A DNA stretch of 1,055 nt from Naegleria gruberi. Taxonomy: Eukaryota. The notes beneath the pieces are model-generated. The model worked only from the letters and a program-made list of their open reading frames with translations, did no database searches and had not been told where the DNA came from. The stretch's first letter is position 1. Every line of letters begins with the position of its first letter. The translations under genes were made by a program, and so were the position numbers. This document shows, one piece after another, positions 1 to 1,055 of this stretch. The stretch lies in the NCBI GenBank assembly GCA_000004985.1, contig GG739589.1, one strand, 5' to 3'.

Positions 1-19
1 TACCAACTCCCGAACGGCT

Positions 20-37
20 GCGATTCAGACGGTTCCG
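20..37. repeat. Internal 18-mer sub-repeat a (gcgattcagacggttccg) in module copy 1
   Basis: It matches 99-116 at 16 of 18 positions. The identical 18-mer is at 391-408 in copy 2. Confidence 0.7.
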
Positions 38-98
38 TAATTGCATAATCAATGAATGTATCGCGTAGCTGACGTTTCACAAATAGAAGTGAAGGAGG

Positions 99-116
99 GC
101 GATTCAGGCGATTCCG
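99..116. repeat. Internal 18-mer sub-repeat b (gcgattcaggcgattccg) in module copy 1
   Basis: It matches 20-37 at 16 of 18 positions and lies immediately 3' of gaaggagg. The identical 18-mer is at 471-488. Confidence 0.7.
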
Positions 117-159
117 ATTAAGAGACCGGTGTCCATAGATTTAATTTGATTATAAATAT

Positions 160-184
160 AGTGACTTTCGGAATCACTTTTTTT
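160..184 (+). terminator. Intrinsic-terminator-like hairpin plus T7 run at the 3' end of module copy 1
   Basis: The stem is agtga (160-164) paired with tcact (174-178), with an inner tt/aa pair and a cgg loop, followed by a T-run at 178-184. The stem is short and AT-rich, so it is thermodynamically weak. Confidence 0.35.
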
Positions 185-240
185 ATGTTTGAAACATGCT
201 CAAAAATCAATTTCTATAAAATAAAATCTTTACAAAAGGT

Positions 241-357: not shown

Positions 358-390
358 CAATTTTTTGAGGTACCCAACTCCCGAACGGCT

Positions 391-408
391 GCGATTCAGA
401 CGGTTCCG
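391..408. repeat. Internal 18-mer sub-repeat a in module copy 2
   Basis: Identical to 20-37. Confidence 0.7.
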
Positions 409-449
409 TAATTGCATAATCAATGAATGTATCGCGTAGCTAACGTTTT

Positions 450-460
450 CAAAAAAAAAA
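450..460. repeat. A11 homopolymer tract inside the divergent patch of module copy 2
   Basis: aaaaaaaaaaa is at 450-460. The corresponding region in copy 1 (75-89) is cacaaatagaag, which is interrupted. Confidence 0.8.
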
Positions 461-470
461 ATGAAGGAGG

Positions 471-488
471 GCGATTCAGGCGATTCCG
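471..488. repeat. Internal 18-mer sub-repeat b in module copy 2
   Basis: Identical to 99-116. Confidence 0.7.
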
Positions 489-531
489 ATTAAGAGACCG
501 GTGTCCATAGATTTAATTTGATTATAAATAT

Positions 532-557
532 AGTGACTTTCGGAATTCACTTTTTTT
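532..557 (+). terminator. Intrinsic-terminator-like hairpin plus T7 run at the 3' end of module copy 2
   Basis: The stem is agtga (532-536) paired with tcact (547-551), with a 10-nt loop, and the T-run is at 551-557. The arrangement is the same as in copy 1. Confidence 0.35.
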
Positions 558-824
558 ACATTCGATTTAGACGATTTAATGGTAGTATAATTGAGTATAC
601 AGGTCTATTATAAAGAATATATTGGGTAGAAACGGGTTAATTTTTTTAATCGATTTTATGCATATATTACAAGAGGAATATAATGTTTTACAGTATTTGG
701 TTATTTTAAAATCGGCTAGAAATGAAGTGAGGACAAAAATTTTAAAAAATTTCAGTCAAAAATATGGTCATATTTATCAGTAAACTATATCTTGTGGATT
801 TATATATTAATAGATTTTTCGTTT

Positions 825-884: not shown

Positions 885-1055
885 TTCGAGTTCATCGAAC
901 CCCCCGAAATGTCTGAACTTCAGTTCCTAACCTTGCGGACAGCAGGATCCTAAGGGATTACCCTCATCGAGGGTATCAACGCCCTTCGGAGCCCCCAATG
1001 GGTCAACCACCCGTTGGGGCCTGCTGTTCACACCGGGGGTCGGTAACCCTCCCCG
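885..1055 (+). ncRNA. Unidentified GC-rich, highly structured RNA-like element (truncated at the window end). Alternatively an organellar-type GC cluster.
   Basis: GC content rises abruptly from about 25% to about 60%. A long-range helix pairs 937-946 (ggacagcagg) with 1020-1029 (cctgctgttc); it is 10 bp with one G·U. It encloses four hairpins. The first is ccctc/gaggg (961-965 with 969-973), which competes with aggg/ccct (953-956 with 961-964). The second is gcc-c(ttcg)g-gc at 981-992, carrying a C(UUCG)G tetraloop. The third is a 10-bp stem at 993-1002 with 1010-1019 and a 7-nt loop tcaacca. The fourth begins at 1035-1051 (ggggg/ccctc) and is cut by the window end. G·U pairs at 938·1028, 999·1013 and 1036·1050 would be A·C mismatches on the minus strand, which favours + strand transcription. 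I found no match to tRNA, 5S, tmRNA, RNase P, SRP or the common riboswitch cores from memory. Confidence 0.4.

Follow-up and report, generated by a model that had tools for sequence, protein, structure and literature searches.

The GC-rich, folded element at positions 885-1055 of the window (the whole stretch of DNA analysed here, 1,055 nucleotides of Naegleria gruberi contig GG739589.1) is very probably the start of the 5' external transcribed spacer (5' ETS) that precedes the 18S rRNA gene on the circular rDNA plasmid of N. gruberi. In all likelihood it is in this segment that the AT-rich non-ribosomal spacer (NRS) meets the GC-rich 5' ETS of the one rRNA operon carried by an N. gruberi-type circular extrachromosomal rDNA element (CERE) of about 13.8 kb. 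The position and strand of the element, its continuity with 18S, its replicon and its organism were all demonstrated. The first-pass annotation had described an unidentified, stand-alone structured RNA, but the element is very probably 5' ETS and is continuous into 18S; as an ordinary component of a replicon that has already been sequenced and published, it most likely belongs to the rRNA precursor and is not a new RNA gene. The main value of the analysis is that a false lead is removed: a folded GC island resembling a new structured RNA is most likely a pre-rRNA leader. Mildly new are the ETS and its start, which are unmarked in publications, the finding that the annotated ORF upstream of 18S is probably spurious, and motifs at the boundary and in the upstream spacer that are found across species.

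The GC content is 21-25% across most of positions 150-900 and 24% at 801-900, and rises to 55-61% at 901-1050, confirming the composition jump that had drawn attention to the element. The GC-rich block begins at about position 890 and, after about 890 nt without a break, reaches position 1 of an 18S of the same strand; 5.8S and 28S come next. It had been suspected that the window end cuts the element, and in longer contigs the block does extend another ~730 nt. The 18S start falls at window-equivalent coordinate 1787; in contig L018 the SSU begins at 10728, which is 732 nt beyond the window end. Contig L002 shows the same arrangement, with the element followed by about 820 nt of very GC-rich sequence and then by TACCTGGTTGATCCTGCCAG / TACCTGGTTGATCCTGCCAGTA, the 5' end of a eukaryotic 18S, where position 1004 of the contig matches position 1 of the Rfam SSU_rRNA_eukarya model. 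In both contigs the element immediately precedes 18S, on its strand and with no gene separating the two, as an ETS does. Rfam matches at gathering score in L018 and in contig L001 confirmed the unit order 18S - ITS1 - 5.8S - ITS2 - 28S.

A sharp GC island within AT-rich DNA is also what a mobile GC cluster of the fungal-mitochondrial type would look like, and many copies at unrelated loci had been named in advance as the sign of one. An exact 24-mer of the element matched only two metagenome contigs, both of which are rDNA elements, and there is one copy per 13.8-kb unit, on a nuclear rDNA circle and not on mitochondrial DNA. Within the collections searched, where the element occurs singly per unit and in rDNA contigs only, the GC-cluster reading is refuted, and we give it a vanishingly small probability. 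The suggestion of a low-GC bacterial or organellar origin likewise fails, as the element sits on a eukaryotic Naegleria rDNA circle.

The replicon was recognized from L018, which was retrieved with the open frame just beyond the window end as query. This contig contains the whole window at 99.3% identity, including both copies of a 372-nt repeat, and one SSU (10728-12747)-5.8S-LSU operon on the same strand as the element. It repeats itself with an exact period of 13,799 nt (4900/4900 positions) and one operon per period; a wrap-around contig alone would fit either a circle or a tandem array, and the circularity of the element is taken from the literature. L001 (14.4 kb) carries, on the window strand, a GIR1 branching ribozyme (Rfam, 202.7 bits) and a His-Cys box homing endonuclease (Pfam zf-His_Me_endon, 4e-37) inside the SSU, followed by the rest of the SSU, 5.8S, LSU, an AT-rich spacer of about 7 kb and the GC-rich block. 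Endonucleases of named Naegleria species share 82-89% identity with the one in its intron. A single rDNA unit in the range of ~14-16 kb (L018) and sequence identity to named Naegleria elements, the marks of a CERE, were thus both found.

Published N. gruberi CEREs (AB298288 from NEG-M; MG699123 from EGB, 14,007 bp) have the same gene order and a similar unit size, their ETS ORF translation is 98% identical to that found here, and their repeats of 34 and 371 bp match ours. The L018 match, the ORF identity and these repeats together led us to assign the window to an N. gruberi-type CERE. The element is identical in the EGB-like contigs L002 and L026, and the adjacent ETS is near-identical to that of N. 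gruberi. The lineage of the window (L018 type) is slightly different from the published one, since its spacer shares 93% identity with that of L026, and the endonuclease-like ORF of its NRS 83% with the N. gruberi protein. For the EGB element, NRS repeats of 34-371 bp and an ORF upstream of 18S have been described (Mullican 2018, PMC5805870). In published accounts of Naegleria rDNA circles, whatever lies outside 18S-28S counts as "non-ribosomal sequence"; the region studied here carries this label, with an ORF in place of an ETS.

Two side observations concern homing endonucleases. The twin-ribozyme group I intron (GIR1 plus endonuclease) is present in L001 (13315-14242, minus strand), whereas the SSU of L018 (10728-12747) is uninterrupted; these contigs are about 99% identical over the spacer and ETS covered by the window, indicating an intron presence/absence polymorphism among very close lineages. 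An ORF of 351-355 aa in the spacer downstream of 28S (L001 6341-7408, minus strand; L018 3327-4382) encodes a second endonuclease domain of the His-Cys box type (zf-His_Me_endon, 1e-26). The ORF is open in several independent contigs and shares 83% identity with N. gruberi AUH25140.1, whose ORF was termed a likely pseudogene in a published note.

The extrachromosomal rDNAs of Didymium iridis (PMC13182076), Tetrahymena and Physarum offer a comparison. They share with the Naegleria elements a multicopy, non-Mendelian replicon with one transcription unit, a repeat-rich upstream spacer and a GIR1/homing-endonuclease twin-ribozyme intron in the SSU. The Naegleria elements are circular whereas the Didymium iridis rDNA is linear, and the Naegleria intron is located at S516, as opposed to S956 in the compared rDNA. 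In the compared systems the ETS and the polymerase I start have been mapped, whereas we found no RNA start mapping for Naegleria.

An independent structured ncRNA gene that merely happens to lie upstream of the rRNA operon would also explain a strong and well-defined fold, and a sigma-70-like hexamer pair at 825-854 might be taken as its promoter. We consider this very unlikely. Bacterial promoter matches were not enriched (8 versus 4.4 +/- 2.0 expected), nor were terminator consensus matches, and because the host is a eukaryote such promoter matches are irrelevant. Searches with Rfam 15 covariance models returned no match for 885-1055 at E up to 10, and nothing beyond the 18S start for the extended ETS at E up to 1, in agreement with the earlier judgement that none of the familiar small-RNA families fits. 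On the whole window the one Rfam hit was a chance match to STnc170 at 206-311, whose 14 bits fall short of the threshold of 80. A tRNA/tmRNA scan, a blastn search of 860-1055 against phages and plasmids, and exact-pattern scans of prokaryotic genomes and viral contigs found none. The GC-rich block, and its homology to the contig L009 of a different Naegleria species, both extend to 18S unbroken by a terminator or an AT-rich stretch, which argues for the 5' ETS and against a separate gene.

Folding predictions nevertheless show that the element is strongly structured. RNAfold gave -75.5 kcal/mol for the plus strand of 885-1055, compared with -53.9 +/- 4.5 for dinucleotide shuffles (z = -4.8); the minus strand reached z = -2.7, so the plus strand is the more distinct. 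Transcription from left to right, as first proposed, is the best reading. For the core at 931-1037 the energy was -58.1 kcal/mol versus -36.1 +/- 3.6 for dinucleotide shuffles (z = -6.2, with 0/200 as good), and its MFE structure makes up 22% of the ensemble. The domain was retained when the whole 902-nt spacer (the ETS of L018) was folded (z = -8.8 with 20 shuffles). The predicted features are as follows.

915-918/923-926, plus strand: small hairpin in the boundary block.
937-1029, plus strand: first folded domain predicted for the 5' ETS; its closing helix (937-946/1020-1029) has 10 bp, among them G938-U1028.
948-990, plus strand: inner helix, 948-950 and 952-956 paired with 982-986 and 988-990; the UUCG at 985-988 lies inside the helix.
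959-965/969-975, plus strand: 7-bp hairpin enclosed by the inner helix.
993-1003/1009-1019, plus strand: hairpin of 11 bp, one of them U-G, formed by CCCCAAUGGGU / ACCCGUUGGGG around a 5-nt loop.
1036-1040/1046-1050, plus strand: possible small hairpin in the local fold.
From 1051, cut by the window end, plus strand: hairpin CCCCGCCU-GAUGAA-GGGCGGUGG, 100% identical in L009.

The long-range closing helix, GGACAGCAGG/CCUGCUGUUC with its single G-U pair, had been read from the sequence and was recovered in the plus-strand MFE of 885-1055. Other details of that reading needed revision. The supposed C(UUCG)G tetraloop hairpin is absent, the UUCG being paired within helix 948-956/982-990 and forming no loop. 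The hairpin at 993-1019 is real, but has 11 bp and a 5-nt loop and not the 10 bp and 7 nt originally assigned to it; the one at 959-975 is also real, with 7 bp where 5 had been counted. A hairpin beginning at 1035 is possible locally (1036-1040/1046-1050), but in the MFE positions 1034-1039 pair with 901-906.

Conservation of this architecture appears to be a matter of lineage. Six N. gruberi-type loci are identical over 931-1055 (125/125 positions), and this invariance is compatible with constraint; because the six copies are identical, they offer no covariation support. Immediately before this stretch, over 116 nt of spacer, 7 positions differ in L002 and 2 in L026, and none in the remaining four copies. 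The sole alignable diverged homologue of the element is in L009, a 14.7-kb contig. Its similarity sets in at window position 889-891 and extends as far as 18S, being 68% in the first ~490 nt and 92% in the final ~320 nt; upstream of 889-891 there is no alignable spacer except a 24-nt motif. L009 retains the blocks GTTCCTAACCTTGCGGAC and CCTCCCCGCCTGATGAAGGGCGGTGG, while the domain that they flank aligns only loosely. Conservation in L009 does not extend to the closing helix 937-946/1020-1029, and the equivalent of its 5' arm forms a perfect local hairpin, CCUUGC-GGAC-GCAAGG. The L009 region as a whole folds no better than shuffles (z = -1.06). In a two-sequence consensus, helix 948-956/982-990 was kept with one double and two single changes, and the inner hairpin (959-975) with two double changes, evidence that is weak because only the N. 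gruberi-type sequence and L009 enter it. At the place equivalent to 993-1019, L009 has a longer hairpin of different sequence (4268-4304). The GC-rich, hairpin-forming character and the position of the element are common to the second species; the closing helix is not. On these models the region appears to be a rapidly evolving, GC-rich, hairpin-forming 5' ETS whose exact architecture is lineage-specific.

More distant loci add little to the comparison of folds. The N. andersoni-type locus L006 shares only the boundary motif with the element, and the 5' ETSs of L003, L010, L012, L014 and L016, loci obtained via the intron endonuclease, start with sequence unrelated to it. The ETS ORF protein as query for diverged ETS homologues returned the same species only, and the NRS endonuclease-like ORF returned only N. 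gruberi-type contigs. As an observation beyond the window, the last ~300 nt of the ETS (L018 10441-10727) are 92% identical to L009 and 79-84% identical to L006 and L003. U3 snoRNA pairing and A0/A1-type cleavage sites likely reside in this conserved final ~300-320 nt.

The edge of the GC-rich block is more widely shared than the domain behind it. Every Naegleria rDNA locus that was fetched has an AT-to-GC jump 500-1000 nt before 18S, and in the window it coincides with one feature:

889-930, plus strand: conserved AT-to-GC boundary block, with TCGA(A)CCCCCC at 895-905; homology with L009 begins at 889-891.

N. gruberi-type loci, L009 and L006 each have a single TCGACCCCCC decamer, invariably at the AT-to-GC boundary; the window has it at 895-905 in the variant form TCGAACCCCCC. 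We regard the boundary block, ~885-930, as the putative site where RNA polymerase I initiates and the 5' ETS begins. Indirectly, a polymerase I start at ~885-905 is suggested by the composition jump, by the limit of homology at 889-891 and by the boundary motif, with its single copy per locus. In a separate clade of Naegleria-like rDNA, the motif TTTTTTCACTATAGGGGTACC was seen at the AT-to-GC boundary (L010 1665-1700, L012 850-880, L014 485-515); it may resemble the TATA(G)GGG-type polymerase I start regions of plants and Acanthamoeba.

Transcription may instead begin further upstream, for example with the 372-nt repeats acting as spacer promoters, in which case the element would be within the pre-rRNA and not at its 5' end, and the GC jump would reflect a change in constraint only. 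Spacer promoters are known in other rDNA systems, the repeats carry a motif conserved across species, and the literature yielded neither a mapped transcription start nor an annotated ETS for Naegleria. The repeats also resemble 885-935 weakly (score 10 versus 7.0 +/- 1.4), but this resemblance is not significant, as 149/3000 shuffles reach the score and stricter scoring gives nothing; local alignment against shuffles thus led us to reject the repeats as duplicates of the gene promoter. The abrupt end of L009 similarity at 889-891 is what would be expected at a transcript boundary, and each repeat ends in a hairpin and a T-run. We consider an upstream start unlikely, and favor a polymerase I start at the boundary block.

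Under the favored reading, RNA polymerase I would initiate within ~885-905, around the conserved single-copy motif. If it does, the multi-helix domain 931-1037 would be the first domain to fold on the nascent pre-rRNA. Its 5'-proximal helices might form co-transcriptionally and provide a landing platform for early small-subunit processome factors of the UTP-A/t-UTP type, after which the 5' ETS spacer would be cleaved off and degraded. The platform role is proposed by analogy with yeast and vertebrates, where 5'-proximal helices of the 5' ETS are a platform on which the small-subunit processome starts to assemble; the yeast 5' ETS, of ~700 nt, is a scaffold of that particle. Like eukaryotic 5' ETSs such as that of yeast, the Naegleria spacer is several hundred nucleotides long, lies directly upstream of 18S on the same strand, is far more GC-rich and structured than the intergenic spacer, and evolves fast in its 5' part while being conserved near 18S, as the L009 comparison indicates. 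Unlike the yeast-type setting, the operon is carried by a 13.8-kb circle rather than a chromosomal array, and the sequence has no similarity to any characterised ETS.

The boundary at ~890 and its motif make a concrete candidate for the polymerase I start, and a defined promoter and leader would aid in turning the CERE into a Naegleria expression vector. A 2026 review (PMC13315211) states that the regulatory sequences required for a CERE vector are still unclear. The six copies of 931-1037 are invariant while adjacent spacer differs by up to 6-7%, and it is conceivable, but in our estimation quite unlikely, that this domain is a discrete unit of the N. gruberi lineage, either a stable ETS-derived RNA or a structure coupling polymerase I initiation to processome loading or copy-number control. 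Were this true, the domain, the boundary decamer and an upstream motif, AACTYYYGAACGGCTG, would constitute the first promoter/leader map of the Naegleria rDNA circle.

Open reading frames around the element raised the question of a protein-coding gene, an explanation that we rate as extremely improbable. On the minus strand, a frame that meets no stop between the window end and 927-929 had been flagged as a potential gene, and it does continue, reaching 129 aa in L001. It has no Pfam match and is not preserved in L009, where a net 14-nt indel between conserved blocks shifts it. On the plus strand, an ORF of 173-182 aa starts 5 nt past the window end (L018 10001-10537) and lies wholly within the 5' ETS. 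It is 98% identical to BAF74738.1 and AUH25139.1, two GenBank records of a "hypothetical protein [Naegleria gruberi]". This ORF too lacks a Pfam match; among 5.8 billion proteins its relatives are confined to N. gruberi-type elements, and in L009 it is closed by a stop after ~45 codons. Long open frames are expected at ~70% GC, and the annotated "hypothetical protein" upstream of 18S is probably spurious.

Two further features of this GC-rich stretch were seen in L002 (360-430 and 640-740), in the ETS past the window end. A CCAACC/CCAGCC microsatellite-like tract varies in length among strains, by 9 codons' worth between the L001 and L002 types, and three near-identical hairpins, CCGCAGCCYTTTGGGCTGCCC, stand in tandem.

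The AT-rich spacer upstream of the element contains repeats and a recurrent motif.

1-187, plus strand: NRS direct repeat, copy 1, of 371/372 nt (context, outside the folded element).
372-559, plus strand: NRS direct repeat, copy 2 (the same repeat).
4-37, 283-321 and 375-408: AACTYYYGAACGGCTG motif in the window; also at L018 8645-9350, L009 1977-3760, L006 2320-3600, and L003 2891 and 3461.

The two repeat copies (families D1/D2) are spaced 371-372 nt apart and are 93% identical. Both are present in L018, while L001 and L026 have one full copy. Each copy ends in a hairpin, AGTGAC-TTTCGGAA-(T)TCACT, followed by at least 7 T, and the repeats could act as a terminator, be related to an origin or form a spacer transcript unit. 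In the 0.5-3 kb before the ETS, several Naegleria species with spacers that otherwise cannot be aligned carry repeated occurrences of the motif AACTYYYGAACGGCTG(C/G)G: 5 in L018, 8 in L009, 3 in L006 and 2 in L003, versus ~1-2 expected for the 7-mer core. It is a candidate protein-binding site, and might act in polymerase I termination or enhancement, as a fork barrier or in an origin.
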